Virus record (IMG/VR): IMGVR_UViG_3300007609_001205 | Location: 40,834 to 104,833 of that record | Length of the DNA: 64,000 bases | Strand: one strand, 5' to 3' | Source: a virus | Taxonomy: Duplodnaviria > Heunggongvirae > Uroviricota > Caudoviricetes | Shown here: piece by piece, positions 1,640 through 63,728 of the stretch | How the letters are laid out: each line of letters begins with the position of its first letter | Numbering within the stretch: the first letter of the stretch is position 1 | The notes under the pieces: model-generated | Seen by the model: the letters and a program-made list of their open reading frames with translations, nothing else | The model's database searches: none | What the model was told of the DNA's origin: nothing | Position numbers and translations under genes: made by a program

Positions 1640-2159
1640 TAATAATAAATATCACCAAGGAAATTACATTCCTATAAATAAAGAAAAAGTAATAAAACTA
1701 AACTCAGAAGGGGGAATCTACTACCGTAGTTCCCTCGAAAAAAAAAAAATGATGGTTTGGTTCGATAATAATGATAAAATAATTAGATGGTGTGCAGAGT
1801 GTAACAAAATACCATACCAACTCACACATTATGAAAAATCAGGTGATATAAACTTAAAAAGCCATACCTATTATCCCGATTTCTATTACGAATTAGAAAA
1901 GAATGACAGAACAACCTCAAAAGTTATATGTGAGGTAAAACCACACAAGGAATATGAAGATGTTATTCTATTCGAAAAGAAATTGTTCAATGTACCCCAA
2001 AATGCAACCACAAAAAAATTGAAAAATTTAGAATATCGACTTAAAATGGCACAAAAGAATTCACAGAAATGGAAAACAATGATACGTTACTGTGAGAAAA
2101 AGGGACTTAAATTCATTGTTATAACAGAACAACACCTCAAAAGCAAAAAATTCAATTAA
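1620..2159 (+). CDS. hypothetical protein
   Basis: 179-aa ORF with phage-like K/E-rich composition; its 5' end overlaps the previous gene by 20 nt, so the true start may be internal. Confidence 0.35.
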   Translation: MINSKPNNNKYHQGNYIPINKEKVIKLNSEGGIYYRSSLEKKKMMVWFDNNDKIIRWCAECNKIPYQLTHYEKSGDINLKSHTYYPDFYYELEKNDRTTSKVICEVKPHKEYEDVILFEKKLFNVPQNATTKKLKNLEYRLKMAQKNSQKWKTMIRYCEKKGLKFIVITEQHLKSKKFN

Positions 2160-7947: not shown

Positions 7948-8352
7948 GTGTTCCATATCAATAATATATATTATATGCCAGAGTTCGATTTTAAAGATAT
8001 GTATATAGGATACCAAGGACACCCACGGTTCCAAGTGAATACCATCATAACCGATGACATAATCCGTGTGATTATTCAAAAATACGAGATGATCATCTTC
8101 ACAAATAAAGGAGAACTCTATGGTGATCCAAATTTTGGGGCAGATCTTTTGAAATTATTATACGAAACAAGAATATCAGCAACAGCAACACGAAATGTGA
8201 TTGCTCAACAAATCTCGGAATACATACCAGAATTGAACGATATCGATTATGGGTTGGAAGTTGTATTTGAACAAGACCCGGAAAAGTTCCAAGATATAAT
8301 GATTGTGAATTTCACCATACGTGAATACGAAGTTAAAGCAATAATTGCCTAA
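7948..8352 (+). CDS. baseplate wedge protein, gp25/GPW family
   Basis: TNKGELYGDPNFGADLLKLLYE...ATRNVIAQQISEYIPELNDIDYGLEV aligns with T4 gp25 TRKGSRPFDPEFGCDLSDQLFE...VERNIESAVRNYEPRI. The track start is GTG 7948; there is an ATG at 7975. Confidence 0.7.
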   Translation: MFHINNIYYMPEFDFKDMYIGYQGHPRFQVNTIITDDIIRVIIQKYEMIIFTNKGELYGDPNFGADLLKLLYETRISATATRNVIAQQISEYIPELNDIDYGLEVVFEQDPEKFQDIMIVNFTIREYEVKAIIA

Positions 8353-11300
8353 CTCAACCTCTTAGTACCAAGTGTCGCATTCCTATATTGCTTCGATGTT
8401 AAATTAGCAAATGCCTCTAATTCCTGTATATCAAGTATCCCCTTTATCTCATAATTCTTTCTATCTCTCCAATTAAGACCATAACCATTATTAGAACTCA
8501 CCTCAACAACTATAAATGGGTCAATATTTGAATCAACCGTGAAGTTGAATGGGTCAGTGTTAGAAGATAGCCTTCTCTCACTTATTCGTTGAATTGGATG
8601 TAAATCTATCTCTTTCCATTCTGTTATATCAATCCAATTCGTAAATTGACCACCATTATCATTCACGGGTGGAATAACTGAGGCTGTTACAGATTGTGTC
8701 ATTCCATAACCAGAAAATATATAATTATACCTATTATAACTCACAACATCAGAAACATTATAAGTAGTACCCGTTTTCCATTCCGGAACATCCTCATACT
8801 TCCGAGGGTTATTCAAACGATTATCACCAATAACAGACTCATACACCTTATCAAAATAAATAACCTTTTCACCGACAGAATATGTCTTCAATGGATACCA
8901 TTCACGGTATATCTCATATGTTTTGATATCAACAACATATTCGTCCGGCAATGATTGAGTTACACCAAGTGGTTGATCTGCATAAAAATCAAGAACACAA
9001 TTATACACAGTTGATCCATTATTAACAGGCATCAAATAAGATTCATTCAATCTAAAACTGATAGGTGTCATCGATTCCCTCACATTGAATATGGTAACAT
9101 CTCTCATCTGGTGAGAAATATAAGTGTTCTGAACAAAATCTGTTCGACCGGTGATATCCAATATCTTATGTGATAATGGTATTATATTCCCCTGCAACCA
9201 ATATTTCAAACCTTGTAACTTTTTCTGAACCTCCTCAAGAGTATATGTCAGAACACTATTACCATCTCTATCAGTTATACGGTAAGTAAGGTTGAATAAA
9301 TTCGTGTCTTCATATGTATCATTTGGAAATGTACCTTTCAAAAAGTCATTATCTTCCCACCCCACAACAGTTTGGTCAAATATATCAGGTATCTCTACTT
9401 TGAACAATTTCATATAGTTTTTTGAAAGGCGATCAACATTCTTATAATATTCATACAGTTCAAGGTCATTATAACCAAAATAGTTTATGGCATTTATTAT
9501 TGACTTATATGCCCCAACATATGGGTATATAACATGTCGCATCATCAACATCTCTTTACGTTTCTTATTAAGGAATGTCCAATCAATTCCTTCTTCTTTA
9601 ATATCATACTCCTTAAAAATATAAACATCATCTGATGATATCAATTTACCCATATTGTTCAATTCCGTCTTGTATCTTATGTCTTCATTTTCGGTTTGAC
9701 CATATACGAAAAATCTCCCTATCTCTTTATCCCACACCCTTATACGCAACGACAAATAAGTAATTGAATTATCTGATGGATAGCCATTGACGATTGTTGA
9801 TTCATCTTCGAAAAAATCTATTTCTTTGAAAAATTCAACCTCTATCTCTCTTGAATAAACTGCCTTTACTTTCACCAAATAACCATTATTAACTGATATG
9901 TATTGGTTTGAAGCATTTGAAACATCATTTAAGAAAATGGCTATATGTTGCCCAACTTCAAGACCCCTATTGACAAACATGGTATTTGATTGTGGATTTA
10001 ACTTTATAAAACCCGAACGTTTTCCCGATACGGGATCAACCACGGTTGAAAATGATATTTCATTTGTAATATCTTGTGATACATCAATGGTAAAGTCAAT
10101 ATCTTCCTTCATATACAATTGTAATACTGAACGAAGTGCCCCCTCTTCTCTTGAACGATACCCGACAAAGGTTTCAATTGGTTGTGGTGTTGATGAAATA
10201 TCATCATTATCATCTACAAACCCCAATTCGTGGTCAATTCTCGGAAAAACGGTCTGTTGATAGATGGAATTTCCCACTTTGTCAATATCCCTATTAGGCT
10301 TATTGTTCAAATGAACCGTTGGCAAAGGCTTTTGACCAATATAGGCGAGTGGTCCATCAGTAGTCAGTTGTTCCCCCGAAAAATCATAAAGGAAAAATTC
10401 CGGAACATTATCCGAATACCATTTCCAATAAACACTTGCTGTTATACCGCCATTGAAATTGTATCGTGGTCTTCTCAAATAATCCCTCGTATTCAACCAG
10501 AGACCATCTGGTTGTGTATAATTAGGATGAAGAGCACCATATTGACTTTGTGTAACAGTCAATGGATTCGACACAACCACATTGGAAACCACAAAAGAAA
10601 CTTGTGGAACAACTTCAATTATCTGTGATAATGTAGGTTGCAAAAACCAAACAGAATTCCTATCCGGGTTGAAAACATTTCGTGTAGTATTATCACCAAC
10701 AGGTAATGTGAATAATTCCCTCACAACACCTGTAACAGAATTCATAACAGATATATTTGCATTACCCGGATCCTGATTGGAAATATAAACATCCCCATCA
10801 TAATAATTCAATACTTGGTATCCATATGCAGGCGGTACTGTATTATTATAAAATTGATTGCCATTGCTTGCATTTCTTTTATAAAACTTAGGTGCATCCG
10901 ATGATGCATATATAGAATCATCCACCCCTGAAAATTCAAGATAATTATTCGTTCCTGATGCAATACCAGTTGATATAACAACATTATTATCAATATAATA
11001 TAAATCCGAAGAGTCATAGAAATAAACTGCCTCTCTTACCGGGTCATAGATAACCTCATCATCTGTTACCGATGGAACAGAATACGTATTCACAACGGTT
11101 CGTGTCGAACCATCTATCCTTCTAACATCAGTTGGTGGGGAAACAACATACATATCCCCTTCAAATTCATTGAAAACAATATCATATCCCTGACCCGATA
11201 TGGTCTGCACCAATGAACCGGAATTGTATATTAGAACTGATGTATCTGTCGTAACATAAACATCCCCATTATCACGATTGAAATCAAGTGAGAATGCAGT

Positions 11301-14138
11301 TGATGGTAATGTTACCGAACCAATAAGATTCTGTGTGTAAATATCAATCCAATAAAGATCCCTTTCTTCTAAGGCATATACATAAGAATCATATGTATTA
11401 TAAATCATCTTCAATGGTGAGTAAGTACCTGATAAAGTAACTTGTGATTCTAAATTACTCGTTATTGAATCATATACCAATACATCATTACCAAGTACAA
11501 AAATTGAACTCGATGGTTGCACATAAAGAATATCCACAATAGATTGTGTTGCTGTTGCATATGTGTTCAATGAATATGTTGCCGTGTTTTGGAATGTGAT
11601 ATTATATGCACTCGAAAATTGCTGATTGTTGAATTGACCACCTGACTGGGTCACGGAAATACACCCTGATTGCTGAAACCCATTAGAGAACCCAACAATT
11701 GCAAATGGAGAATTACCATAACACGCCTGAGTCAATCCCCAAAATGGACCCTCATAACTTAAATTCATTATATATGGATCAAGGAATATTATACTATAAT
11801 CAACATTCTGCAATGTATAAACAGTATTATTTACCCCCATGACCATACCCGTAGAAAATCCAGAATCCTCAAAATGAAGACATGAAAATGTTCCGGACTG
11901 TGTTCCGGATTGTGTCCCAAGTATTACCGAATTTGATGTGAGAAGTGAACCATGGTTCCCTTTGAATTTCTCAGTTATCACATAATTACTATCACCTGGC
12001 AAAACACTTGCACCCGGCTTCACACTTATATCACACCTTTGGGATGGGTCTTTAACATTAAATTTCAATGTTGAGCCAAGATTATCAACATATACACCAA
12101 AATCATCCAAAATAAATTGGTGTTGGTCTATCCAATCCTCCAATGTTTCTACCATCGAAGATACCCCACCCGTTGGAAGGCTGTGTGTTACTGGATATGA
12201 TCGATCATTCACAACAATATCCACATATGGTCCATAACTGAAAGTAACACCCTCAATAGATGGTTCGTGAAAAGTTACCTCTGTGTGTTCTATATAAAAA
12301 TCTGCAGTTGAACCAACACTTACATTGAAATCCATTGGAACATTCGGATATTGAGTTTCTAATTTTATAGAATTCTTATAGGGTGAAATCATACCTATTG
12401 TCTGTAATGTTGGTGCAATACCCAAACTCACCAACTCAGATAGGTTGTTATTATACCACTCAATAAGTGTGGCGTGTATTGTTCGTTCCATATCAATCTG
12501 ACCAGATGAATACACAAATTTTATATCTGCTTGATAAATTTCACCATTTATATTTATGACAAACCCAAATTCGTCAAGGTCAGTGAAGACAATATTATAA
12601 AGGAAATTCTCAGATATATCATAATTATACTCACTTGTAAGTTGTTCTTCAACTTCAATAAGTCTTTCTATTTTCTGATTCGTTGTACCAATATTCACCT
12701 GTGGGGTGGTATCTGTTAAAAAATTAACAATAGTGTATTGCGATGGATGCACAAGGTCGGCCTTTAACTCAGAACCTTCATAATAAAGGTCTATATCAAG
12801 CTCAGAAAAGACATCTGAGTACTTATCAGCAGCAGATGCAAGTGTTACCCCCTCAGAGAAGGTGAAACTCTGTGTGAATGCGAATCTATCAACAGTAAGA
12901 TAAACTTTACCATTTACCCCAATTGTCTCATTCACGGGTGTCTGTTCAACGGGTATATAAGTTGCCGTACTTGACCAATAATCCGTATCATCCGGATTTA
13001 CAGTAGTTACCGGTGGAGTAACAGTAAGGTCTTCACTTATGGAGTTAGCAACCCACGTATATGATTGAACACATTGATATATTTTATTCTTCCATATTAC
13101 TTGCTGACCAACTTGGTATGTTGTTTGGTTAGCATTCCCAACAAATGAAGAAATTGGGGAAACTCTATAAAATTGTTGGTTAGATATCGACTCCGGTATC
13201 TTAAATTCAACACCCGGCTTCAATATTTGAGGAACACCCGAAACAAAATCAATAACACCAACAAAACCAAGTGAGTTGGTTGTTGTTGCATCATAAAATT
13301 GCATTGCTCCCTCATAAACCAAAGGAACATCTGTTCTTGTAAGAACTTCTATGAAAAGTCCCGTGTTGGTTGGTAACTGTGTATTTGATACCGAATACTC
13401 ATAATGACTCATATCAAGTAGGTTATCATTCTTTATAGTAACAATATCAACATCATCAAAATCATTAGTTTGTTTATAATCATCATTACTATCAGTATTA
13501 ACAATATTTATCCTCCTACCAACATCGATCTTAGTGTAGAATTCATCCTCATTCCAAGTGGATAAAGTATTCTGTAATGATGGAGTTATGTAATTATAAA
13601 TACCAAGGGCATCAACAGATGATATCTTCTCGTCATTGTATGACGAATTATTCTGATAAGGATACGTATTATCGAAGAACGAATTTGTTTCATCAGATAA
13701 TATCATAATTGCACCCGGCTTTGTTCTTATAACGAAATACATTCTATTGGGGTCTGTGAATCCAAATATAGGATCATCGAACCGTATCAATGTACCAATA
13801 GGAAATTTCTTATGAAAATCAACACCATAAACCCACTTGGAATAATATGAATCCTCAAAATTAACAGGTTCAATAGATGTCACAACCTCAGACAAAACAC
13901 CGGATTCATAGAAATGAAAGCCATATTCATTAAATAACTGCCATTTATCAAGTGTAAGATTCTCTCCACACTCATAATCAAAAGCATCTACATTTTCAAA
14001 CATATAAATGCCCTGTGTTTTAAATGTGTCTGTTGAATTCTCATGAAAGAGGATATCCCCATCATATCTTTCAATATCTGTATTATACGTAATGTTTAAA
14101 GACTTTCCCTCCTTATCAAAGAACCTAAGATTATTCAT
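8349..14138 (-). CDS. very large virion structural protein (1929 aa; baseplate or tail-fibre candidate)
   Basis: Uninterrupted 5.8-kb ORF that is S/T/N/G-rich, with an SGTQSGTQSGT repeat. It is convergent with the gp25-like gene and carries the late-promoter-like motif upstream. Confidence 0.6.
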   Translation of the reverse strand: MNNLRFFDKEGKSLNITYNTDIERYDGDILFHENSTDTFKTQGIYMFENVDAFDYECGENLTLDKWQLFNEYGFHFYESGVLSEVVTSIEPVNFEDSYYSKWVYGVDFHKKFPIGTLIRFDDPIFGFTDPNRMYFVIRTKPGAIMILSDETNSFFDNTYPYQNNSSYNDEKISSVDALGIYNYITPSLQNTLSTWNEDEFYTKIDVGRRINIVNTDSNDDYKQTNDFDDVDIVTIKNDNLLDMSHYEYSVSNTQLPTNTGLFIEVLTRTDVPLVYEGAMQFYDATTTNSLGFVGVIDFVSGVPQILKPGVEFKIPESISNQQFYRVSPISSFVGNANQTTYQVGQQVIWKNKIYQCVQSYTWVANSISEDLTVTPPVTTVNPDDTDYWSSTATYIPVEQTPVNETIGVNGKVYLTVDRFAFTQSFTFSEGVTLASAADKYSDVFSELDIDLYYEGSELKADLVHPSQYTIVNFLTDTTPQVNIGTTNQKIERLIEVEEQLTSEYNYDISENFLYNIVFTDLDEFGFVININGEIYQADIKFVYSSGQIDMERTIHATLIEWYNNNLSELVSLGIAPTLQTIGMISPYKNSIKLETQYPNVPMDFNVSVGSTADFYIEHTEVTFHEPSIEGVTFSYGPYVDIVVNDRSYPVTHSLPTGGVSSMVETLEDWIDQHQFILDDFGVYVDNLGSTLKFNVKDPSQRCDISVKPGASVLPGDSNYVITEKFKGNHGSLLTSNSVILGTQSGTQSGTFSCLHFEDSGFSTGMVMGVNNTVYTLQNVDYSIIFLDPYIMNLSYEGPFWGLTQACYGNSPFAIVGFSNGFQQSGCISVTQSGGQFNNQQFSSAYNITFQNTATYSLNTYATATQSIVDILYVQPSSSIFVLGNDVLVYDSITSNLESQVTLSGTYSPLKMIYNTYDSYVYALEERDLYWIDIYTQNLIGSVTLPSTAFSLDFNRDNGDVYVTTDTSVLIYNSGSLVQTISGQGYDIVFNEFEGDMYVVSPPTDVRRIDGSTRTVVNTYSVPSVTDDEVIYDPVREAVYFYDSSDLYYIDNNVVISTGIASGTNNYLEFSGVDDSIYASSDAPKFYKRNASNGNQFYNNTVPPAYGYQVLNYYDGDVYISNQDPGNANISVMNSVTGVVRELFTLPVGDNTTRNVFNPDRNSVWFLQPTLSQIIEVVPQVSFVVSNVVVSNPLTVTQSQYGALHPNYTQPDGLWLNTRDYLRRPRYNFNGGITASVYWKWYSDNVPEFFLYDFSGEQLTTDGPLAYIGQKPLPTVHLNNKPNRDIDKVGNSIYQQTVFPRIDHELGFVDDNDDISSTPQPIETFVGYRSREEGALRSVLQLYMKEDIDFTIDVSQDITNEISFSTVVDPVSGKRSGFIKLNPQSNTMFVNRGLEVGQHIAIFLNDVSNASNQYISVNNGYLVKVKAVYSREIEVEFFKEIDFFEDESTIVNGYPSDNSITYLSLRIRVWDKEIGRFFVYGQTENEDIRYKTELNNMGKLISSDDVYIFKEYDIKEEGIDWTFLNKKRKEMLMMRHVIYPYVGAYKSIINAINYFGYNDLELYEYYKNVDRLSKNYMKLFKVEIPDIFDQTVVGWEDNDFLKGTFPNDTYEDTNLFNLTYRITDRDGNSVLTYTLEEVQKKLQGLKYWLQGNIIPLSHKILDITGRTDFVQNTYISHQMRDVTIFNVRESMTPISFRLNESYLMPVNNGSTVYNCVLDFYADQPLGVTQSLPDEYVVDIKTYEIYREWYPLKTYSVGEKVIYFDKVYESVIGDNRLNNPRKYEDVPEWKTGTTYNVSDVVSYNRYNYIFSGYGMTQSVTASVIPPVNDNGGQFTNWIDITEWKEIDLHPIQRISERRLSSNTDPFNFTVDSNIDPFIVVEVSSNNGYGLNWRDRKNYEIKGILDIQELEAFANLTSKQYRNATLGTKRLS

Positions 14139-14204: not shown

Positions 14205-14486
14205 ATGAAAGTAATAATTGTATGGTATGAGAACTTTGTGTTCTTATATAAACATGGGAATAAATTAGGAACTGCTATAACAAATCAAATAGAATATTTG
14301 GAATATTTTGAAGGTACTAAAAAAGAATTCATGGTGAGATACCAAAAAGATTATCCAACTTCATCAAAACAAATTTTCTGCGATTCAAAACACCCACTTC
14401 GATTCCATATCAGACAGGCTATCGAAACATCATCCGAATTCAAAATAGTTGAAAGAAGTAGGAAATTGAAGAATATATTACGATAA
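14205..14486 (+). CDS. hypothetical small protein
   Basis: 93-aa ORF sitting between two minus-strand genes; balanced composition. Confidence 0.3.
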   Translation: MKVIIVWYENFVFLYKHGNKLGTAITNQIEYLEYFEGTKKEFMVRYQKDYPTSSKQIFCDSKHPLRFHIRQAIETSSEFKIVERSRKLKNILR

Positions 14487-15605
14487 TTTATCAGAGGAGG
14501 ATTTATAATTCTCCTCATACTTCTGAAGTATAATATCATACTGTTCTACCATAACTTCTCGAAATTTATCATTTGAATAAGTTTGGCGTTCAATATAGTT
14601 CTTGATATAATTTTCATAATCCAACTTCGTAGTTATCTCAACATCACCATCAGCAGCCTCTAGCAATATCTCTTCTTCATCTTCCTCATCCTCATCATCT
14701 ACTATATCATCAAGATAATCAATTGAAGCAAATCCACCTTTTGACAGTAATATCTCTAAATTCCTACGAATCTTCCTATCGGTAACAAGTAGGTTATTTG
14801 AAATAACAAGGTCTATATAATCCTTAGAATTTATCTCATCATCCAACTTATCAATATCTTCCTTTTCCTTTATAACAATTTCACGGAATATAGGTGAATA
14901 TTTATTTGGTACAAATTCAATCTCACCTGAATCTGGCCGAAGTATGGTTATTCCCTTCTGATCACCACGGTCATTCCTATCCATCTGATACGGAGAACCT
15001 ATAAATGTAAAGTTTTTAGTTCGTTGACGGATATGTATATGACCACTGAAAACATGCTCATATCTCGAAAATGCAGAAACATCAATTTTATCATGGTTTC
15101 TATGTGCAACAGAATTAAGATGCATTCGACAACCATTCAGATCGGAATGACAAAACAAATAATCACCCGGGCTATTCTCTATTTCCTTTATCATATCCAC
15201 TCTATGCTCAACCCAAGGCATAAGTACAAGTTTCTTTTCAGCAAAATCAATTGTAGTTGTTTCTGTATAAACATGAACATCATCTATATGATCGAAAAGC
15301 CTAACCGAATTAACATCATTCGTTCCCTTATTCCATAGATCATGGTTTCCAACTATCATATGAACTGGGAGTATCTTAGATATCTCTGTTATTATCTTCT
15401 CTGCTTTATAAGAAACAATAATAGGAATTGCAGTCCTATTATCATAGAGATCACCACAATGGATAAGAATATCTCCCTCTTCAACATTTTCTTTCAGAAA
15501 TGGTATATAGGAGTTCATAAAATAATCCTCCATCATATCCAACCATTTATCCAAATTATTCAAGTAAACACCAAAGTGCCAATCCGTAGTAATAAAAACC
15601 TTCAT
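14478..15605 (-). CDS. Mre11/SbcD-type nuclease, T4 gp47-like (calcineurin-like phosphoesterase)
   Basis: MKVFITTDWHFG, HCGDLYD and VGNHD are metallophosphoesterase motifs and are collinear with T4 gp47. Acidic C-terminal tail. Confidence 0.8.
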   Translation of the reverse strand: MKVFITTDWHFGVYLNNLDKWLDMMEDYFMNSYIPFLKENVEEGDILIHCGDLYDNRTAIPIIVSYKAEKIITEISKILPVHMIVGNHDLWNKGTNDVNSVRLFDHIDDVHVYTETTTIDFAEKKLVLMPWVEHRVDMIKEIENSPGDYLFCHSDLNGCRMHLNSVAHRNHDKIDVSAFSRYEHVFSGHIHIRQRTKNFTFIGSPYQMDRNDRGDQKGITILRPDSGEIEFVPNKYSPIFREIVIKEKEDIDKLDDEINSKDYIDLVISNNLLVTDRKIRRNLEILLSKGGFASIDYLDDIVDDEDEEDEEEILLEAADGDVEITTKLDYENYIKNYIERQTYSNDKFREVMVEQYDIILQKYEENYKSSSDKLS

Positions 15606-31094: not shown

Positions 31095-32867
31095 TTACTT
31101 TTCAGTCGGTCTTAATGGAACTGCAGTGGAACCAGCATCTCCCATATCACTTTCTGATACATCTACTGAACCTGTATCATTTTTTGGCTCAGAATTTCCA
31201 CCGAATTTCTCCAACATCTTAAGTGTTTGATACATTCCCATACCCATCATTGGATCAGTTTCATCACCATCACTAGAATCATCAGAACCATTTTGGTAAT
31301 TATAGAACTGTGGTGCTGCAAGTGCTTGTGCAGGCAATTCCTTCATAAATTCCATAAGTCTCAACTGGAATGACATATCTTTCCCAAATACATTCACAAG
31401 TTCTTCTTGACCTTTCGCAACACCTTTATTATATAGGTATTCAGCCTCACCATCCAATCTACGTGCTTCTTTATTCTCAGCAGCAGCTTGTTTCTTAATC
31501 TGTGCAGCTACAAGCGCACCTTGTTGTTCAGCTTCGGCTTTTGCTTTAGATGATGCAACTTTTGCATGGAATGCCTTCTGTTCTTCCTTATAGGTTTGCT
31601 TCAACTTATAAGCCAACTGTTTTCTCTTATCAGGAACAAGCAATTCAGGTGGAATCGAAACAGATGTTAATCGGAATTCTTTAACCTTAACTTTATTCTT
31701 CATAGCCTCATCTACAATAAATTTTTCAATAGAACTCTCAATATCACTACGTTTTGTTACGAATTCAGTAGCTTCTCTAAGTTCTCCTTGATTACGAACC
31801 TGTGACCTTACAAGTGGTGTTATTACCTTGTTTTCAAGATCAACCAAACTCCCAATGGATGATAGGATATATGGAGCATCTTCTGCATCGATCTGTACTA
31901 ATAATCGACCATTTACATGAACTTCCCAACCATCTTTTGTCTTAGTACCCATTGCATCATCTGCAACACCCGATTCTTTACCATATTCAATTGGCTCACG
32001 TGTTTGGGTGATATCACCATTCTCACTCACTTCAAGGTCAATGGTTGCAGTTTTATAATTACCCGCATACTTCCATGTCTGAACACGTGTGTTGAATTTA
32101 GTGATAGTATATGCATTTGTGTTGATGTAATATTTTGATGGTGTAAGTACTTTCTTTCGAATACCTCTAAACCCTTCACCTACAACCGGGTTTGCTAACT
32201 CACCACCATCTGCTGCTCGTTGAATGTCATCTGGAACTTTACCGACTTTTGATAAAACCACACCAACATAACCAGGGGGGATTGTAGTGGCTCTTTCTAA
32301 TTTCGTTCTAAATAAATAAGTATTGATCTTATACTCACCAGGTTCAAGTACATTTAATTGTGGTCCTTTACGCCCACCATTCTCCAAAAAGTACTTCGCA
32401 TCCAACATATTTGTTTCAATACTATCACGATATTGTTCTTGATCAGGTGATACCCAATCAGGTGCAATAAATTCCTCACCTACCAATGGCTGACCATCAA
32501 GTGCAGTAAGAGTTCCCACCATACCATCTGGAACAACAAATGTAGAATCATAGGTAACGGTGTTGTTTACATTAACCCACCAATGCCATGCCATACCCTC
32601 CGAAAGAATTTTCGCCTGACGACCATTTTCGCCATTTTTTGAAATGACACCATCCGTGTTTGATACACCACCCCATTTCTTATAAATAAGACCAATATTC
32701 TCCTTTGGGACACTGATCAAGGAAGTGGCCACGAAACCACCCAAAAAGAAAATGGCTGATACTACCCACAAATGCCACCTTTTGACGGGAAACCTTGGTT
32801 GTTGAAAAATGGGTATAAAAGATGCTCCAAGAGCAATAACCGATAAAATTAATAAAATTGCATACAT
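31095..32867 (-). CDS. membrane-anchored SPFH/band-7 (flotillin/YqiK-like) protein
   Basis: Two N-terminal TM helices and a central SPFH-like region. A coiled coil rich in A/E/Q/K (AEAEQQGALVAAQIKKQAAAENKEARRLDGEAEY) is typical of flotillins. The C-terminal tail is acidic. Confidence 0.55.
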   Translation of the reverse strand: MYAILLILSVIALGASFIPIFQQPRFPVKRWHLWVVSAIFFLGGFVATSLISVPKENIGLIYKKWGGVSNTDGVISKNGENGRQAKILSEGMAWHWWVNVNNTVTYDSTFVVPDGMVGTLTALDGQPLVGEEFIAPDWVSPDQEQYRDSIETNMLDAKYFLENGGRKGPQLNVLEPGEYKINTYLFRTKLERATTIPPGYVGVVLSKVGKVPDDIQRAADGGELANPVVGEGFRGIRKKVLTPSKYYINTNAYTITKFNTRVQTWKYAGNYKTATIDLEVSENGDITQTREPIEYGKESGVADDAMGTKTKDGWEVHVNGRLLVQIDAEDAPYILSSIGSLVDLENKVITPLVRSQVRNQGELREATEFVTKRSDIESSIEKFIVDEAMKNKVKVKEFRLTSVSIPPELLVPDKRKQLAYKLKQTYKEEQKAFHAKVASSKAKAEAEQQGALVAAQIKKQAAAENKEARRLDGEAEYLYNKGVAKGQEELVNVFGKDMSFQLRLMEFMKELPAQALAAPQFYNYQNGSDDSSDGDETDPMMGMGMYQTLKMLEKFGGNSEPKNDTGSVDVSESDMGDAGSTAVPLRPTEK

Positions 32868-33698: not shown

Positions 33699-33875
33699 AT
33701 GGGAAGGCCAAAAGGACAAAATAAAGAAAAGGTTGGATTTTCAATCGATAAAAAGATAATGAAACAACTTGACGAGTTCTGTGAATTGAATTCAATCAAC
33801 CGTTCGAAACTTGTCAATAATATAGTCAAGGACTATTTAGAAAATAATCTGATAGAAATATGTCAAGACAAATAG
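33699..33875 (+). CDS. ribbon-helix-helix-like small DNA-binding protein (possible small terminase/regulator)
   Basis: MGRPKGQNKEKVGFSIDKKIMKQLDEFCELNSINRSKLVNNIVKDYLE has an Arc/CopG-like RHH pattern. It lies immediately upstream of, and overlaps, the TerL gene. Confidence 0.4.
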   Translation: MGRPKGQNKEKVGFSIDKKIMKQLDEFCELNSINRSKLVNNIVKDYLENNLIEICQDK

Positions 33876-35959
33876 TATGGACAACGGCAATGGTCGAAGA
33901 GGCAGCCGAAAAGATAAATAATGGATTCTTATTATCAAGGGCAGAAAACCCATTCCACGAGGGAACAATAGGTCTTCGGAAGAATAAAGTAACCTTCAAA
34001 ATGTCCCCAAATGAATTACAAGAGTATATTAAATGTAAAACAGATGTACATTACTTTGCTGAGAATTATTGTTGGGTGAAGGGTGAGAAAGGTGAACCAG
34101 TAAGACTTAGACTAAGAGATTACCAAGTAGATATATTAGATAAATTCTATAACAACAGATTCAATATATTAATGGCGAGTAGGCAAGTTGGTAAAACTAT
34201 ATGCTCATCTATAATGTTACTTCATTTTGTCTTATTCAACAACAATAAGAATGCACTTGTGACTGCAAACAAATTAGACACTGCAGTTGAAGTACTTGAT
34301 AAAATGAGAGAAATATACCAAAGACTTCCATTCTTCTTACAAGCAGGGATTGTCAATTGGAGTATGAAGACCATTGTGTTCGAAAACAAATCAAGAATAA
34401 AGGGATTTGCCACAACAAAAACAGCATCCATTGGACAGGCTGCCGATTTCCTTTACTTGGATGAGTTTGCATACCTACCAGACAATATTGCCGAAAAGTT
34501 CTATAAATCCGTATTCCCAACAGTATCTTCTATGGAAAATTCCAAGATCATTATAACATCCACTCCAAATGGGTATAACCTTTTCCACAAATTATTAACA
34601 GATGCCGAGAAACCAGAAGGCGAGAAATCAAACTACTGTGCAAATAGAGTATATTGGTGGCAAGTACCAAAAAGACACGTTACATACATAAGACTCGATA
34701 ATAAAAAATTAAAGAAGTTTGGTGTAACCAAAGAAGAAGTAAAAGAACTCCTCGAAACGAAATACCCAAATACAGAAACATCAATAAAGTGGAATGATGA
34801 AATACACAAATGGGTAATTCATAAATTAAATGATAAAGATTGTACCGAGGAAATGATTCTAAATGAGAAAATAGGGGATGTTAAATTCCCTATGTTGGGT
34901 GATATAACCACATGGAAAAAAGAAACCATTAAAGATATCGGTGGAGAAGAGGCATTCAACCAAGAATTTGACCTCAGATTTATCAATACATCTAGGTCAT
35001 TATTGGATGAAACACTCATAAAGGAATTAAAAGACAACACCACCGAATACGAATACCAACACATAGACGAGATAAAAGATAAGATAAGATTCGATGTAAC
35101 TGACCTCAAATGGAACTCAAACCCCGAAGTTTATGAACACGAAAAAAGAAAGGATTACAAAATAGTGTTATCAGTAGATATTGCAGAGGGGTTAGGACAA
35201 GACTCATCTGTTATAAACATATTCAAGGTAAAACCAAAACCAATTGATCTAATCAAAAAACACGGCAAAAAGTATAAAGGACTTCAAGACTTTTACCAAT
35301 TAGAACAAATAGGGATATTCAAAAATAACCTTGTTTCTGTGAAGGAATTATCAGAACTCCTATACATAATTGGATTTGAACATTTTGAACCAGATAACGT
35401 CAAAATAGTTGTAGAACTTAACAATTATGGAAATGAGTTAGTTGCACACATGCCACATTTATTTGATGGGAATAATAACTATGGATCATCTGTTTTCTTC
35501 CGTTACAAACATCGTATAGATTCCCAAGATGAGAAAATTGGACTCAAGGTTGGGAATAATAAAAACTTATTGGTAAAATCATATCAGGAAAGAATGGACT
35601 CACGTAGTATCATAATAACCAACTCAGATAACATAGACGAAATGACCACATTCATAAAACACACAACCAATGCAGGGAATGTAGTTTATAAGGCAGATGG
35701 GTCTAAACACGATGACCAAGTTATGACTGTAGTAAATGTATCAAGTGTTTTCGAGAAAGTACAATTTCACCAAATGGTAGAAGACTACCACTACGAGATC
35801 ACAGATAGTGAAGTGAAGAAAATAATAGATGAAATAATGAAAAATATACAATATGATGACCCTGTTGATTATGGTCAGTTATTAGATATAAGACGCAGAA
35901 AAATGGGGAAACATAATAAATCACAAGTCGCCAAAAAGAATTGGGGATTACAGCCATGA
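33860..35959 (+). CDS. terminase large subunit, T4 gp17-like
   Basis: The Walker A motif MASRQVGKT, the Walker B motif FLYLDEFAY, and a C-terminal nuclease region; 699 aa. Confidence 0.8.
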   Translation: MSRQIVWTTAMVEEAAEKINNGFLLSRAENPFHEGTIGLRKNKVTFKMSPNELQEYIKCKTDVHYFAENYCWVKGEKGEPVRLRLRDYQVDILDKFYNNRFNILMASRQVGKTICSSIMLLHFVLFNNNKNALVTANKLDTAVEVLDKMREIYQRLPFFLQAGIVNWSMKTIVFENKSRIKGFATTKTASIGQAADFLYLDEFAYLPDNIAEKFYKSVFPTVSSMENSKIIITSTPNGYNLFHKLLTDAEKPEGEKSNYCANRVYWWQVPKRHVTYIRLDNKKLKKFGVTKEEVKELLETKYPNTETSIKWNDEIHKWVIHKLNDKDCTEEMILNEKIGDVKFPMLGDITTWKKETIKDIGGEEAFNQEFDLRFINTSRSLLDETLIKELKDNTTEYEYQHIDEIKDKIRFDVTDLKWNSNPEVYEHEKRKDYKIVLSVDIAEGLGQDSSVINIFKVKPKPIDLIKKHGKKYKGLQDFYQLEQIGIFKNNLVSVKELSELLYIIGFEHFEPDNVKIVVELNNYGNELVAHMPHLFDGNNNYGSSVFFRYKHRIDSQDEKIGLKVGNNKNLLVKSYQERMDSRSIIITNSDNIDEMTTFIKHTTNAGNVVYKADGSKHDDQVMTVVNVSSVFEKVQFHQMVEDYHYEITDSEVKKIIDEIMKNIQYDDPVDYGQLLDIRRRKMGKHNKSQVAKKNWGLQP

Positions 35960-36786: not shown

Positions 36787-37350
36787 TCACTCGTTTATAA
36801 CAACGGGTGTCTTATCTGATTTGGTAACATCAATTACCTCAACCCTACATGGTTGTTCCGGTGCCCACTCTTCAATGAACTTAACCAAGTGAGCATGACG
36901 GTCATCATACATTACAAATGTATCAGGATTGTATTTCTCAATGAGATCACTATATAGAATAGATTTAAAATCATAAGTATCCATACCAGGATTCAAATAA
37001 GTATGTGTCCCAAAATCAATGTTGTGATGTCTTAAAATATCCATAACCTGTTTCCTAAGAGATAACCTACCGGGTCTTTCACCATTACGTGATTTATCTA
37101 ACCGACCAGTCGCAAGAATAGGTAAAGTTGCCTCTTCTGAACACGCCTCAAGGTATTTTTTATAAACAAATGGATTAACAGGTATGTCAAATATATTTAT
37201 ATCCAAAGATTCCGGTTTTGACCACCACCCCGGATATGGCCAATCAAGACCAGTAGATTCCGACCAAAACTTTTTCCCCCAATCCTCCTTAGGACTATAC
37301 ACAAGTGTGTCGTCAAAATCAAATGATACTATTTTATCTACATACTCCAT
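36787..37350 (-). CDS. HAD-superfamily phosphatase/nucleotidase
   Basis: FDFDDTL (DxDxT) forms motif I, with downstream conserved T/S and K/D motifs. Confidence 0.6.
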   Translation of the reverse strand: MEYVDKIVSFDFDDTLVYSPKEDWGKKFWSESTGLDWPYPGWWSKPESLDINIFDIPVNPFVYKKYLEACSEEATLPILATGRLDKSRNGERPGRLSLRKQVMDILRHHNIDFGTHTYLNPGMDTYDFKSILYSDLIEKYNPDTFVMYDDRHAHLVKFIEEWAPEQPCRVEVIDVTKSDKTPVVINE

Positions 37351-56121: not shown

Positions 56122-56328
56122 ATGGGATTTTTGAATAATTTTTTTGGCTATCGGTCATGGTTAAAAGAACCGAAATATTGTGAACATTGTGATGATACAG
56201 GAGAGATTGAAGTTATTGTAATGGGAACTGATGATACGAATTACGTAGAATGCACAGTTTGTAAAAATAGACCATCAAGAGTACGAACCAAAAGAAACAG
56301 AACACTAACCAAAATATTAGACACATGA
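56122..56328 (+). CDS. small zinc-ribbon protein
   Basis: CEHCDDTG...CTVCKN forms a CxxC-x20-CxxC arrangement. Confidence 0.4.
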   Translation: MGFLNNFFGYRSWLKEPKYCEHCDDTGEIEVIVMGTDDTNYVECTVCKNRPSRVRTKRNRTLTKILDT

Positions 56329-57239
56329 CAACAGATCCAACAAATTATTCAATTGGCGTAGTGGTGGCGAGATTCCAAGTCGATGATCTCCACGAAGGAC
56401 ACCATCACATTATTGAACAAGTTTCCAATAACCATGGAAAGATTCTTGTATTTCTAGGAATACCGGAATTCATTGGAACAATGAAAAATCCACTGGACTT
56501 TGACACAAGGAAAAAGATGGTTCAACAAGATTACCCCAATGCAGTGATCATGTCAATACCGGACCAACCGGAAAATGACCTATGGGCAAAGGAATTGGAT
56601 AGACGAATCCGAGAAATTTACCCAAAATCCCACGGAGAAGTTCTACTTTATGGTTCAAGGGATTCATTCATTCCGTCATATGAAGATGGTGGCGGTGAAT
56701 TCGACTGCACCGAATTAAAATCACATGGTACATATGCAGGTATTGATATCCGAAAGAAAATATCTGATGAAAACCTTGCCTCACGAGATTTCAGGTATGG
56801 ATGCATCTATACAGCATATAACCAATTTCCAAGAGTTATTCCAGGGGTAGATATTATCCTCATGAGAAAAGGGAAAGTTATGTTGGCAAAAAGATATAAT
56901 GAACATCGATACCGATTCATCGGTTCTCTGGTAAAAGAGGGTTCTGATTCATTCGATGTTGCTGCCAACAAAATACTCACCGAAAAAATCGGAAGCAATT
57001 GTGAGATAAGTCCTTTGAAATATCTATTCTCAACAAATGTTGATGATTGGCGTGTGAGGAATTCAAGGGATAGTGTTATATCCACTGTTTTTGAGACAGA
57101 AATACTATGGGGTCACCCACAACCATATTCTAAATATGACGAAATCAAAGAATTTGATATTTCTGACATAAACCACGAAATCATCACCAAAGATCACCAT
57201 CCAATTCTCGAAAAATATTTAAAAATTAAAACAAAATAA
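56325..57239 (+). CDS. natV: bifunctional NMN adenylyltransferase / Nudix hydrolase (NatV/NadM-like)
   Basis: N-terminal cytidylyltransferase motif VVVARFQVDDLHEGHHHII (HxGH) and a C-terminal Nudix-box-like region GSLVKEGSDSFDVAANKILTEKIGS. It lies directly upstream of the NadV-like gene, as in vibriophage KVP40. Confidence 0.65.
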   Translation: MTTDPTNYSIGVVVARFQVDDLHEGHHHIIEQVSNNHGKILVFLGIPEFIGTMKNPLDFDTRKKMVQQDYPNAVIMSIPDQPENDLWAKELDRRIREIYPKSHGEVLLYGSRDSFIPSYEDGGGEFDCTELKSHGTYAGIDIRKKISDENLASRDFRYGCIYTAYNQFPRVIPGVDIILMRKGKVMLAKRYNEHRYRFIGSLVKEGSDSFDVAANKILTEKIGSNCEISPLKYLFSTNVDDWRVRNSRDSVISTVFETEILWGHPQPYSKYDEIKEFDISDINHEIITKDHHPILEKYLKIKTK

Positions 57240-57241
57240 TT

Positions 57242-58894
57242 ATGAAAACAGTCAAATTACCACAGAAAAGGGTTACTCGAACCCCAAGATTACTTTTAGC
57301 AGATGCTTATACAGTCGGAGGAAATGATTTCCAAAGTGATAAAGCACAAGAGAAATCATCCTATTATGCAACATTCAGAAGGGAGTTATTTAAGATAAAC
57401 CCCGACCTATATGTAAAAGGAGATAACCGAATGGTCTTTTACGGACTTGGGAGAATCCTCGAAAAATTATTTTATGATCCGGTCACACATCAAGAAATAG
57501 ATGATGCCAAGGCGTTCTTAGAAACAGCCAAAGTAACTGCAACAGGCCTAACAAAATACAATTTCCCCGAAGAACTATGGCGAACAGTAGTAGATGATTA
57601 CAACGGAAGACCACCTATTAGAATTATGGCAATGCCCGAAGGATCTGTTGTTTATCCAAACGAACCAGTAATGCAAGTTACAAGTACTGCACATGGACGT
57701 AAAATGGGTGAGTTGGCAGCATGGTTTGAGAGTAAGTTACTACAAGTATGGGCAACTTCTGAAAGAGCCACACAAGATAGACATTGGCTTAATTACCTTA
57801 TTGAAATGGTAAAGGAAATTGACCCGAACAACGAACAATTCCTATTGGATGCATCATCAATGCTTACCGATTTTGGTGACCGAGCCGGGGCATGTATGAT
57901 GGAATCTGATGAAATTCCATTGGGTGGTCTATTGAGTTTTATGGGATCAGATACATTCTCAGCAGGATATCAAGCATGGAATGAATCCGGTCGAAAAGAA
58001 CCAACTGCAATCAGTGTGTTGGCACTTGCCCATAGAAATGTACAAGCATATGAAAAAGAAGAAGATTGCTACCGTGCATTATACGATGCTATGGAAGACA
58101 ATGAAATTGGGAGTTTTGTGGCTGATTGCTACGACTACTATAATGCAGTGGAAAACCATTTGTTAAAACTTGCACTCGAAAGTAAGAAAACCGGAAATGG
58201 GAAAGTTGTTACAGTAAGACCCGATAGTGGTGACCCAGTAGAACAAGTTATTTGGACATGCCGATTGGCAGTAAAAAATGGTCTTTATACCGAAAGAGCC
58301 ATCACTGACAAACATGGCATGAAAAGACATTGGAAGTTCGGTACATTCTTGAAATTCATTGAAGGTGATGGAATGGATTTCAAAACAATGAAAGATATTA
58401 TGAAAGCTTTGATGTCTGAAGGATTTGCACCTTACGGTTGGGGATTATTTGGATCTGGTGGCGGATTAAGAAACAATCTCAAAAGAGATAACCTATCTGC
58501 AAAATATGCAATCAATGCAGTGGGAGATGATAATACAGGAGTTATCAAAACATCTGAGGTTGTTGAGAAGTCAAGCCTACCCGGACCATTGAAAGTCCTT
58601 AGAACAAAAGAAGCACTCCAAAAGGGAGAAACTATAACATTCTTAGACAATGATGGTGAAAATGCAATGAAGCTTTACTTTGATGGATCAAATATTTGGG
58701 AACCATTCGGACCAGGAATGGATGACCATTTCTTGGTTGCAAAGGAAAGACTAAATGAGCAATGGGACTCTATGCCAAAAAACTTACCAAACAAGTTTCC
58801 AGCAACAACAGATGTTCTCGAAGAAAGAGACAGATTATTGGCTATCAATGCTCCATCAAAATTCGAAGAACGTAGTTTTGGAACACTTGCATAA
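57242..58894 (+). CDS. nadV: nicotinamide phosphoribosyltransferase (NadV/NAMPT)
   Basis: N-terminus LLLADAYTVGG parallels NAMPT LLATDSYKVTH; the motif GLFGSGGGL is conserved; 550 aa. Confidence 0.7.
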   Translation: MKTVKLPQKRVTRTPRLLLADAYTVGGNDFQSDKAQEKSSYYATFRRELFKINPDLYVKGDNRMVFYGLGRILEKLFYDPVTHQEIDDAKAFLETAKVTATGLTKYNFPEELWRTVVDDYNGRPPIRIMAMPEGSVVYPNEPVMQVTSTAHGRKMGELAAWFESKLLQVWATSERATQDRHWLNYLIEMVKEIDPNNEQFLLDASSMLTDFGDRAGACMMESDEIPLGGLLSFMGSDTFSAGYQAWNESGRKEPTAISVLALAHRNVQAYEKEEDCYRALYDAMEDNEIGSFVADCYDYYNAVENHLLKLALESKKTGNGKVVTVRPDSGDPVEQVIWTCRLAVKNGLYTERAITDKHGMKRHWKFGTFLKFIEGDGMDFKTMKDIMKALMSEGFAPYGWGLFGSGGGLRNNLKRDNLSAKYAINAVGDDNTGVIKTSEVVEKSSLPGPLKVLRTKEALQKGETITFLDNDGENAMKLYFDGSNIWEPFGPGMDDHFLVAKERLNEQWDSMPKNLPNKFPATTDVLEERDRLLAINAPSKFEERSFGTLA

Positions 58895-59628
58895 TGAGTA
58901 GAGTTTTCAACAAAGAAGATGTTAAAAGGTGGCAAAAGAGGTTCGATGAACTTGATATCTCTTGCCACCTTATTGACGAATCAAGTAAAATAGTAGCATT
59001 CTATCAAAAAACAAGTAACCATACATTCCAACCTAATATAACCCAAATTCAAGAATTACAAATATCTACACATTTTAAATATAAATTTAATTACTCAGTT
59101 CCAAAGAGTAATTTAAACACATTCAATAAGATATTAGACGATACACTTAACAACAGACCATTTATCATAAGACAACAGAACGATAACACTTATACAAATG
59201 ATAAAATAATAACCCCCCTATCTGAATTACCCACGATTAAAAGAACCGAACTTTTTATAAATGGAACTGATTACATATTACACGAGGCAACATTACACAC
59301 ACAATTATCAAATTTGATAATGTGGGTAACAAATGTTGAGGATGCATTTATAACCCTATCAAAATGGTATCCACTTGATGGTAATGGAGAAGAATTATCC
59401 AAACTCCCATTCAAATTACATGATATAGTTTCACGTAAAGGGAAAAGAGATGAATGCCTTATCAAAGGAATATCATATAATAGGGAATTTTTATTCTATG
59501 ATATAATAGAAATAAATGAAAAAATAGGTAATTCTATCATATTCGGTGATAATTATAAGCAATCTCCTGAATTCCTTGAAATATCAAGAAACTCTAAATT
59601 AGTAAGTTTACTCAAAGCCTCCAAATGA
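58894..59628 (+). CDS. hypothetical protein
   Basis: 244-aa ORF. Confidence 0.45.
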   Translation: MSRVFNKEDVKRWQKRFDELDISCHLIDESSKIVAFYQKTSNHTFQPNITQIQELQISTHFKYKFNYSVPKSNLNTFNKILDDTLNNRPFIIRQQNDNTYTNDKIITPLSELPTIKRTELFINGTDYILHEATLHTQLSNLIMWVTNVEDAFITLSKWYPLDGNGEELSKLPFKLHDIVSRKGKRDECLIKGISYNREFLFYDIIEINEKIGNSIIFGDNYKQSPEFLEISRNSKLVSLLKASK

Positions 59629-60873: not shown

Positions 60874-61290
60874 ATGAGTCTGGTACAATCATACAAGAAC
60901 ACCCATTATAATAGTGATATTAACATCACACTTATCGTAGATACTGATTCTAAACAATTGGATGAATTATTGAAAGACCGTGGTATGCGATCAGCCATCT
61001 ATATAACGGCATGGAACCCCTTAAGTGAAAGCCGCCCCATCAGGGAAAACCAATCATCAAACGAAAATCTTAAGGATGACCTACTCACCATTACAAGTGA
61101 GGAAAATATAATAATGGGATTTGGTGAATCTATTTCAAATGAAGTACCAGGTGAGGAAAGTTTCCTAGTATTGGGTCTTTCAAAAGAAATTGGTAATGAA
61201 CTGGCATATAAATATCAACAGAACGCCTTTATCTTACATCAGTTGAACTCTTTTACAGAGTTGGTGATAACTGATCATTATAAAGAATAA
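60874..61290 (+). CDS. hypothetical protein
   Basis: 138-aa ORF. Confidence 0.4.
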   Translation: MSLVQSYKNTHYNSDINITLIVDTDSKQLDELLKDRGMRSAIYITAWNPLSESRPIRENQSSNENLKDDLLTITSEENIIMGFGESISNEVPGEESFLVLGLSKEIGNELAYKYQQNAFILHQLNSFTELVITDHYKE

Positions 61291-63254: not shown

Positions 63255-63728
63255 TTGGAAATTGTAAAAAAACTACGTTGGACATATAAACAAGAGAATA
63301 AACCATTCATATCAATCGCATCAAATGATTGGGTTAGATGGGGGTTTCTGTTTAAAATAGCAATATGGCTTAACCCCAATTACAAAAATGTTACAATATT
63401 CAGGAAAAAATACAAATCCCTTAGGAACTTTGTAGTTATTGGACTTAGATGGAATGGCAGGAATGTTAATCGTAGAACAACCGGCTTTGCCAAAAAAGTC
63501 ATACAGAAGCACAAGGATTCCAAGTGCCTTTATTGCGAATGTGTAATAACCGATGAAAATGCTTCTACTGATCACATAATACCCATCTCAAAGGGTGGAA
63601 ACAACTCTCAAGTAAATCTTATGGTCTGCTGTTTTGATTGCAATAACGAAAGAGGTGATATGGACTTTAATAAATTTTTGAGATATAAGAACCCAAAATA
63701 CAAAAAAACGAAAATACCATATGTATGA
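63255..63728 (+). CDS. HNH endonuclease
   Basis: CLYCEC...ASTDHIIPISKGGNN..VNLMVCCFDCNNERG is an HNH motif with a zinc-binding Cys box. Confidence 0.65.
   Translation: MEIVKKLRWTYKQENKPFISIASNDWVRWGFLFKIAIWLNPNYKNVTIFRKKYKSLRNFVVIGLRWNGRNVNRRTTGFAKKVIQKHKDSKCLYCECVITDENASTDHIIPISKGGNNSQVNLMVCCFDCNNERGDMDFNKFLRYKNPKYKKTKIPYV

Follow-up and report, generated by a model that had tools for sequence, protein, structure and literature searches.

Phages can rebuild the nicotinamide adenine dinucleotide (NAD+) of an infected cell by NAD+ reconstitution pathways (NARP), two of which are among the closest described systems to the locus presented here. NARP2 of Vibrio phage KVP40 consists of a nicotinamide phosphoribosyltransferase (Nampt) and a nicotinamide mononucleotide (NMN) adenylyltransferase (Nmnat or NMNAT), which together increased NAD+ and abolished defence by type I Thoeris and by DSR2 (bioRxiv 10.1101/2024.02.11.579819), while NARP1 consists of Adps and Namat. 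According to a survey of viral genes for NAD+ and ADP-ribose (ADPR) metabolism, 33% of jumbo phages have NadV, NadM never occurs without NadV, and the genes were proposed to have a counter-NADase role (PMC9503650). We analysed a 64,000-nucleotide stretch (positions 40,834 to 104,833) of the IMG/VR virus record IMGVR_UViG_3300007609_001205, hereafter the window, which carries an adjacent pair of such genes, a nadM-like gene for a protein of 304 aa and a nadV gene for a protein of 550 aa. On the evidence of their sequences, the two genes probably form an operon for NAD+ salvage II, equivalent to NARP2, in a relative of huge phages, with a Nudix-fold domain in the 304-aa protein that would be non-catalytic.

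The locus has both enzyme families of the KVP40 NARP2, and the predicted chemistry, from nicotinamide and phosphoribosyl pyrophosphate (PRPP) through NMN to NAD+, is alike. In both systems the Nmnat is of the NadM type and fused to a Nudix fold, and the Nampt is without the Namat clamp. However, compared with KVP40-like phage proteins, the window NadM is 22% identical over 85 aa (E = 0.004) and the window NadV is 28% identical. In the KVP40-like phage D479 about 3.7 kb separate the two genes, whereas those of the window abut in the order nadM to nadV, and the Nudix box is canonical in the KVP40 type (RELREE) but degenerate in the window (KILTEK). KVP40 belongs to the Vibrio schizo-T4 lineage, in contrast to the Bacteroidota/huge-phage lineage of the window phage. 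The initial annotation of the window, which had equated the pair with the KVP40 pathway, is thus right in the chemistry and not in the orthology, as the 304-aa protein belongs to the Bacteroidota/huge-phage NadM lineage and is no orthologue of KVP40 NatV.

Comparative counts for bacterial and viral loci come from scans of GTDB species genomes and of IMG/VR, which provided 45 bacterial loci and the best 80 of 267 viral relatives. Counts out of 119 refer to an alignment (A2) of the 119 closest relatives of the 304-aa protein, which was also the basis of the family profile and of the AlphaFold (AF2) model.

Organisation of the nadM-nadV locus

The nadM-like gene (56325-57239, + strand) was defined by an open reading frame (ORF) call and characterised by the AF2 model, Foldseek and the family profile. 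It is followed at a spacing of 2 nt by nadV (57242-58894, + strand), which was recognised by its matches to Pfam, PHROG 448 and NAMPT structures in the PDB as a Nampt-type gene of a 'long', phage-only lineage. Both genes are part of a densely packed co-directional gene array. The initial annotation had described two adjacent, co-directional genes in AT-rich DNA, in agreement with this arrangement and with the GC content of 0.27-0.39 across the window; its title, NadV + NatV, names the correct pair in reversed order, the NMNAT-Nudix gene being upstream and NadV downstream.

Neither ORF was judged to have arisen by chance, because the 304-aa protein has many homologues in a metagenome protein collection (308 at E <= 1e-3, many below 1e-100), an identical copy of it is present on other metagenome contigs, and NadV matches NAMPT structures at values down to E = 1e-32. 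A megablast search with the 5-kb locus matched none of 50,697 phage records, which means that no close relative has been sequenced among them, and tblastn with the 304-aa protein matched just 5 of these 50,697 records. A sigma-70 promoter scan of the region from 52 to 62 kb returned 43 promoter-like sites, fewer than in shuffled sequences (55±7), and a terminator scan of the same region found none on the + strand.

NadV has the catalytic residues of a nicotinamide phosphoribosyltransferase

The 550-aa protein matches the Pfam family NAPRTase with a score of 53.0 (gathering score 20.8) and, marginally, NAMPT_N with a score of 25.6 (gathering score 25.0). It also matches PHROG 448 ('nicotinamide phosphoribosyl transferase') at E = 1.2e-48 and the solved NAMPT structures of Xanthomonas (7yqo, E = 1e-32) and human (E = 4e-28). 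Two other PDB entries, 9w5x and 9ke8, are matched far more weakly, at about E = 1e-10 as against 1e-32 for NAMPT.

Alignment to human NAMPT places the active-site motifs along the + strand of the gene. DFGDR (57869-57883), which holds F211 and R214, is kept in 15/15, 56/56 and 39/39 members of the three NadV lineages found beside this nadM family. GSDT (57944-57955) is aligned with GTDT of the human enzyme, and its Asp, D237, is kept in all three lineages. The catalytic histidine H264 stands in an A-H-R context (aa 262-264, 58025-58033) opposite AEHS of human NAMPT. RPDSGDP (58217-58237), with R326 and D328, corresponds to the PRPP/ribose-phosphate binding motif, and D21 and Y23 (ADAYTV), D376 (EGDGMD) and the GSGGG loop align with both human and Xanthomonas NAMPT. 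The glycine loop GLFGSGGGL (aa 401-409, 58442-58468) runs into the SCH-equivalent segment GGGLRNNLKRD (the whole feature spanning 58442-58489), which is of the Nampt type and has no aromatic clamp. All of the catalytic residues are conserved in 15/15 members of the own lineage of the window NadV and also in both other lineages. The equivalent residues of human NAMPT are D16/Y18, F193/R196, D219, H247, R311/D313 and D354, among which we take D219 to be the residue that selects for nicotinamide, the nicotinate phosphoribosyltransferases having Ser in its place. The initial annotation had named a nicotinamide phosphoribosyltransferase with the motif GLFGSGGGL and had singled out the NAMPT Asp/Arg active site as the point on which this depends; the motif, the structural matches and the intact active site all bear it out. 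The catalytic histidine of NAMPT is autophosphorylated (PMC12774641); on the precise function of the Glu beside this histidine, a literature search returned generic statements only.

Namat enzymes are characterised by the signature GSXΦXΦXΦTRD, in which X3 and X7 are aromatic (PMC12774641). The register of this clamp was validated on the bona fide NARP1 Namat of Escherichia phage Barry, whose gene is adjacent to that of its Prs-like Adps and whose segment reads GSYTYQYMTRD. The corresponding segment is GGGLLQQLDRD in the KVP40-type Nampt and GGGLRNNLKRD in the window NadV, with G and N at X3 and X7. A query with the Barry Adps found nothing credible in the 64-kb window, the best match (E = 0.034) lying inside a GDP-mannose dehydratase gene. 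Since the aromatic clamp and a credible Adps are both missing from the window, NadV is assigned to the PRPP-using Nampt type and not to Namat. The pair and NARP1 have in common that Namat is homologous to the window NadV and that both would serve to rebuild NAD+; they differ in that the window is without Adps and the selectivity clamp and pairs NadV with an Nmnat.

The window NadV belongs to the 'long' NadV lineage (median 553 aa), which was seen on viral contigs only; among the NadV types it matched best at 18 of 77 viral loci and at 0 of 42 bacterial ones.

The 304-aa protein has the architecture of NadM-Nudix proteins

Because single-sequence Pfam matches of the 304-aa protein remain below the gathering scores, its domain assignment rests on the family profile and a fold search. 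The 119-sequence profile matches the NadM-Nudix protein of Francisella (PDB ID: 2qjt) at E = 1.9e-19 over the stretches 7-153 and 170-301, that is over both domains. The AF2 model has a mean predicted local distance difference test (pLDDT) value of 84.8 and a predicted template modelling (pTM) score of 0.71, and the top six PDB matches of this model in Foldseek are all to the NadM-Nudix entries 2qjt, 2qjo and 2r5w (E from 1e-17 to 1e-13), although sequence identity to these solved structures is only about 16%. At the family level the model and the profile make a firm case for a two-domain NadM-Nudix architecture, with a predicted HIGH-type adenylyltransferase followed by a Nudix fold. The two-domain architecture is shared, by fold and profile, with the bacterial NadM-Nudix proteins of Francisella (2qjt, 2r5w) and Synechocystis (2qjo), which are bifunctional NMN adenylyltransferases/ADP-ribose pyrophosphatases.

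The NMNAT domain (aa 8-165, 56346-56819, + strand) is a nucleotidyltransferase of the HIGH superfamily which aligns with residues 5-149 of Francisella NadM (FtNadM) and with the NMNAT of M. jannaschii (MjNMNAT). The first ATP-binding motif, HxGH, is present as HEGH (aa 23-26, 56391-56402, + strand), with H23 in 118 and H26 in 116 of the 119 sequences; these histidines, on which the initial annotation had made the assignment depend, are intact. Compared with FtNadM, two extra residues stand between RFQ and HxGH. R16, Q18, H23 and H26 are found in 116-118 of the 119 family members and R143 is invariant among them, while D80 and W87 are invariant in an alignment of 27 sequences. D80, N84 and W87 match identical residues of the M. 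jannaschii enzyme, which we take to be NMN contacts. Altogether the domain retains 60 of the 64 positions conserved in the family, and its identity within the sub-clade is 71.5%.

The second ATP-binding motif, equivalent to SGTxxR/ISSTxxR, reads AGIDIRK (56736-56756, + strand), with Ile140 in place of Thr. This position is Thr in 112 of the 119 relatives, Ser in 5, Ala in 1 and Ile in the window protein alone, and Thr also occupies it in FtNadM, Synechocystis NadM (SyNadM), MjNMNAT and KVP40-type NatV. The Ile140 codon, ATT, is one transition away from ACT. Given the Ser and Ala residues found at the site in relatives, a hydroxyl group at position 140 would not be absolutely required. The role of the motif (ISSTxxR) has been described (PMC5889475); a literature search for the exact role of its Thr returned generic statements only.

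The Nudix-fold domain is degenerate

The Nudix-fold domain (aa 170-300, 56832-57224, + strand) is confidently modelled (pLDDT mostly 81-96) and has structural matches to NudC, RppH and the Nudix domains of NadM proteins. Its Nudix box, GSLVKEGSDSFDVAANKILTEKIGS (56922-56996, + strand), has the core K-I-L-T-E-K where R-E-U-x-E-E is expected. The register was set by profile alignment, in which RELFEE of FtNadM lies over the family consensus R-i-l-s-k-E and over K-I-L-T-E-K of the window protein. Three signature residues, R15, E16 and E20, are thereby substituted, and the canonical box GX5EX7REUXEEXGU is absent. Among the 119 closest relatives all three signature glutamates are present in 14, two in 2, one in 67 and none in 36. 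Overall the domain keeps just 13 of 20 family-conserved positions and is about 51% identical among close relatives; in the sub-clade of the window protein G201, D207, R216 and E247, each with over 90% conservation elsewhere in the family, are lost as well. R197, G200 and D249 are kept, and so is the D-W-R motif (D241-W242-R243, 57045-57053, + strand), which is present in 119/119 members of the family, in 45/45 bacterial and in 76/80 viral homologues.

The Nudix box GX5EX7REUXEEXGU is required for hydrolase activity, and a Nudix domain of the NadM/NrtR type with a perturbed signature had a kcat of about 1.4e-4 s-1, which became 600-fold faster when the signature was restored (PMC2330246). With its metal-binding glutamates gone and this almost inactive enzyme as published precedent, the window protein has very probably lost the ADP-ribose/NAD(H) pyrophosphatase activity. 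NrtR offers a published parallel to this loss of hydrolysis: its Nudix domain is likewise of the NadM/ADPRase type, with a decayed signature and a preserved fold. It differs in being a repressor whose Nudix domain is fused to a winged-helix DNA-binding domain, whereas the partner in the window protein is an adenylyltransferase and a DNA-binding domain is lacking. The fusion of an NMN adenylyltransferase to a Nudix domain proposed by the initial annotation therefore stands as a two-domain fold, with the correction that its Nudix half is catalytically degenerate. The name bifunctional NMNAT/Nudix hydrolase is not appropriate for the 304-aa protein.

Pairing, Nudix decay and exchange of NadV among related loci

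The bacterial nadM homologues are almost all from Bacteroidota. Among the loci with enough downstream DNA, NadV is encoded beside nadM on the same strand in 42 of 43 bacterial and 77 of 78 viral cases, and it lies directly downstream of nadM in every relative examined in detail. The order nadM to nadV is common to the window, the Bacteroidota loci (42/43) and the salvage-II operon of Synechocystis.

The fate of the Nudix signature separates the loci. Canonical REUxEE is kept in 45/45 bacterial homologues, in contrast to its loss in the window protein, and in 65/80 viral ones (Fisher p = 0.001, viral versus bacterial). All 15 viral loci with a degenerate signature have at least 43% identity to the window protein, while the 65 canonical ones are all at or below 42%; the decay therefore appears to mark one derived phage clade.

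The NadV partner falls into three divergent lineages across the nadM loci, and these do not follow nadM. In L003 and L005 nadM is 46-48% identical to that of the window and NadV merely 25-28%, whereas in L004 and L006 NadV is 51-52% identical and nadM merely 35-39%. The closest viral loci (L053 and L054, 63% nadM identity) carry a NadV of the L003 type. This pattern indicates that the NadV partner has apparently been replaced repeatedly while the adjacency was kept, and the preservation of adjacency through such replacement argues for a strong functional coupling of nadM and nadV.

Sixteen of the 80 viral NadM homologues (IMG/VR loci among L053-L132, e.g. GVVVARFQVHKLHEGQRNLLNM) have HxGQ for HxGH, with Gln in place of the second His, and a canonical Nudix box. 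The window protein shows the opposite combination, an intact NMNAT motif and a dead Nudix domain, which suggests that the half of the bifunctional enzyme that was kept differs between phage lineages. Locus L005, in which the fused Nudix is degenerate, carries a stand-alone canonical Nudix (RELEEETG and an RDPR motif) right after NadV (L005:8391-9017), and upstream a small CTP_transf_like gene and a cREC_REC-domain gene (listed at L005:1410-2248). Compensation of the dead fused domain by a stand-alone Nudix was rejected as a general pattern, as it was found in 0 of the 15 degenerate viral loci within ±4 kb. A minority of loci, namely bacterial L022, L024, L025 and L031 and viral L072, L078 and L116, have a Prs/Adps-like gene at a distance of less than 4 kb from nadM-nadV. 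The bacterial cases fit the known prs-nadV linkage; the three viral ones could reflect a supply of PRPP or a mixed NARP1/NARP2 arrangement.

Proposed pathway and alternative explanations

By homology and with its catalytic residues conserved, NadV would condense nicotinamide with host PRPP to NMN, which the N-terminal domain of the 304-aa protein, with its unusual T140I change, would adenylylate with ATP to NAD+. The conversion of nicotinamide to NAD+ by the two genes together was also the core of the initial annotation, and in this it appears correct. The Nudix-fold domain would still fold and most likely does not hydrolyse ADP-ribose or NAD(H); it is probably a structural, oligomerisation or ligand-binding module. 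With this hydrolysis lost, the pathway would depend on host PRPP and could not by itself turn ADP-ribose back into ribose-5-phosphate. Physiologically it would maintain a high NAD+ level during infection, and by analogy with KVP40 it is plausible that the pair blunts Thoeris, DSR, SIR2-type and similar defences that deplete NAD+.

A number of observations weigh against this proposal. The match of NadV to the NCBIfam equivalog PRK09198 is full-length (protein 17-482, profile 8-446 of 465) but scores 182.7 bits against a cut-off of 405, and by its sequence NadV represents a divergent lineage. The histidine context is A-H-R in 15/15 NadVs of the window type as against E-H-S in 95/95 of the two other lineages beside this nadM family. 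For the 304-aa protein the best NCBIfam NadM-Nudix equivalog (PRK05379) gives 27.7 bits against a cut-off of 418. On the Pfam profiles named in the initial annotation, NadV passed the gathering scores of NAPRTase and NAMPT_N, while the single-sequence scores of the 304-aa protein fell just short of them, with 19.7 against 21 for CTP_transf_like (NMNAT) and 18.4 against 21.1 for NUDIX. T140I could reduce the NMNAT activity, and the confidence of the model is lowest (pLDDT 51-63) in the helix with the second ATP motif (residues 131-160). The 64-kb window is part of a genome of at least 152 kb, and an active Nudix, Prs or Adps could be encoded elsewhere in it; within the window no Prs/Adps-like gene, no Macro, NADAR, ART or sirtuin domain and no second active Nudix was found, and a search of all frames of the window for a canonical Nudix box returned none. 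Finally, NARP2 of KVP40 raises NAD+ also in cells without a defence system (bioRxiv 10.1101/2024.02.11.579819), so on these data a counter-defence role is inseparable from a general boosting of NAD+.

This last result also speaks for regarding the pair as a general metabolic booster, an auxiliary module that would serve NAD-dependent phage enzymes during a long infection; the chemistry would be unchanged, but selection would not have acted specifically for the defeat of NAD+-depleting immunity. Such a role is compatible with the salvage operon proposed here, and it is also in line with the whole sets of NAD+ synthesis and utilisation genes that are common in jumbo phages, with the housekeeping salvage function of the equivalent operon in Bacteroidota chromosomes and in Synechocystis, and with the NAD(P)-dependent sugar-nucleotide enzymes encoded at 2156-4149 of the window. 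However, the homologous pathway experimentally defeats Thoeris and DSR2, and the loss of the Nudix activity and the lack of other genes of the NAD+/ADPR network in the window do not discriminate between boosting and counter-defence; we hold the booster role as a possible one, with some reserve. A further idea is that T140I has crippled the adenylyltransferase, so that only NadV works, a host NMNAT finishes the conversion of NMN, and nadM is on its way to a pseudogene or a structural partner. Ile140 is found in 1 of 119 relatives, every reference NadM examined has Thr, and the Nudix half of the protein is already degenerate. Yet the ORF is intact, the 60 conserved positions out of 64 include R16, Q18, H23, H26, D80, W87 and R143, the family tolerates Ser (5) and Ala (1) at the position, and more than one contig encodes the identical protein, and we consider this scenario unlikely.

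The dead Nudix domain might also have been repurposed for ligand binding, either as an ADP-ribose sensor that activates the adenylyltransferase or as a sponge for ADPR-derived immune signals. The confident fold of the domain, the retention of D-W-R, R197, G200 and D249 while the catalytic glutamates were lost, the match of the family profile to the NrtR structure 2FML, and the example of NrtR, in which related Nudix domains have lost catalysis and bind ADPR as an effector, are in favour of such a function. But the additional loss of G201, D207, R216 and E247 in the sub-clade, together with an identity of about 51%, looks more like relaxed constraint, which makes repurposing doubtful. Similarly speculative is a broader version of this idea, in which a Bacteroidota-derived operon was remodelled in one phage clade, the Nudix domain being inactivated and kept as a binding or regulatory domain for ADP-ribose or immune signals and NadV being repeatedly swapped, the A-H-R lineage included. 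If it were true, the enzyme would have stopped destroying NAD(H) and ADPR, NAD+ synthesis would be coupled to the products of NADase defences, and the A-H-R context of the 'long' NadV may alter the coupling to ATP and Mg2+. The reading of the 550-aa protein as a Namat, which would make NAD+ in one step from nicotinamide and ADPR-pyrophosphate and so from the products of NADase defence, draws on the homology of Namat to Nampt and on the fact that the two are often annotated alike. We rejected it on the clamp signature (GGGLRNNLKRD as against the genuine GSYTYQYMTRD), and with no Adps/Prs-like gene in the window and the NARP2 hallmark of pairing with an Nmnat it is highly improbable. The salvage II/NARP2-equivalent operon is the reading that we consider probable.

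The phage and other genes of the window

The initial annotation had taken the virus for a T4-like phage. The TerL gene (33860-35959) has a T4-type N-terminal Pfam domain, and the window also contains a gp44-like clamp loader and a UvsX/RecA-like gene. However, the nearest relatives of this TerL are uncultured huge phages of 630-735 kb with 39-54% identity (LR756502 with 53.9%, LR745206 with 52.6%, as well as LR756504 and LR756501/3), followed by the jumbo phages Tenacibaculum PTm1 (34%) and Sphingomonas PAU (29%), while T4-like cyanophages reach only about 28%. Several genes flanking the pair are syntenic with a 629-kb metagenomic phage scaffold. By these comparisons the phage is placed as a relative of a huge uncultured phage lineage, for which 'T4-like', set against 52-54% TerL identity to the huge phages, would be true only in the most distant sense. 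The host is likely a member of the Bacteroidota, since the bacterial nadM homologues come almost exclusively from this phylum.

Two further ORFs directly flank the pair. The 68-aa ORF upstream (56122-56328, + strand) has two CxxC pairs, is zinc-ribbon-like and overlaps the nadM start by 4 nt (ATGA), and the 244-aa ORF downstream (58894-59628, + strand) overlaps the nadV stop. Neither has a Pfam or PHROG match or a homologue in the related loci examined; both were therefore rejected as parts of the module and are lineage-specific insertions around the predicted nadM-nadV operon. About 2 kb downstream of the pair lies a gene for a DUF3293 protein (60874-61290, + strand, E = 3e-15), a domain on which a literature search found nothing.

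On the - strand, a GDP-mannose 4,6-dehydratase gene (E = 5e-160) adjoins one for an NAD-dependent epimerase/dehydratase (E = 8e-64) at 2156-4149; the two probably constitute a phage-carried pathway to a GDP-6-deoxyhexose of the fucose type. A possible tail fibre or host-recognition protein of 1929 aa (8349-14138, - strand) has a carbohydrate-binding module 5/12 of the chitin-binding type and matches DUF4888 weakly. A DUF723 protein with a treble-clef zinc finger (47-1639, + strand), a TnsA-like endonuclease (1620-2159, + strand) and an HNH endonuclease (63255-63728, + strand) are probable mobile or homing endonuclease-type genes. The window also encodes, all on the - strand, a calcineurin-like metallophosphoesterase (14478-15605), an SPFH/Band-7 domain protein (31095-32867) and a HAD_SAK_1 domain protein (36787-37350) of the HAD family of 'Swiss army knife' RNA-repair proteins, and these three have no obvious link to the NAD+ genes.

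Significance

The pair is a divergent member of the known NARP2/salvage-II pathway, which is already common in jumbo phages, and the operon appears to be derived from Bacteroidota hosts. As the pathway is established, the case of the window adds little beyond its extension to the huge-phage/Bacteroidota lineage, and neither the inactivation of the Nudix domain nor the phage-only NadV lineage would greatly surprise a specialist. The loss of the Nudix signature would caution against the JGI annotation 'bifunctional NMN adenylyltransferase/Nudix hydrolase' for these proteins. The modest value of the locus lies in the comparative result, that is in a near-invariant pairing which persists despite the exchange of NadV among three deep lineages, and in the loss of the catalytic Nudix residues in one phage clade, against their retention in all 45 bacterial homologues. 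If this loss is adaptive, it tells which of the side-activities of NatV/NadM a phage can do without or is harmed by.

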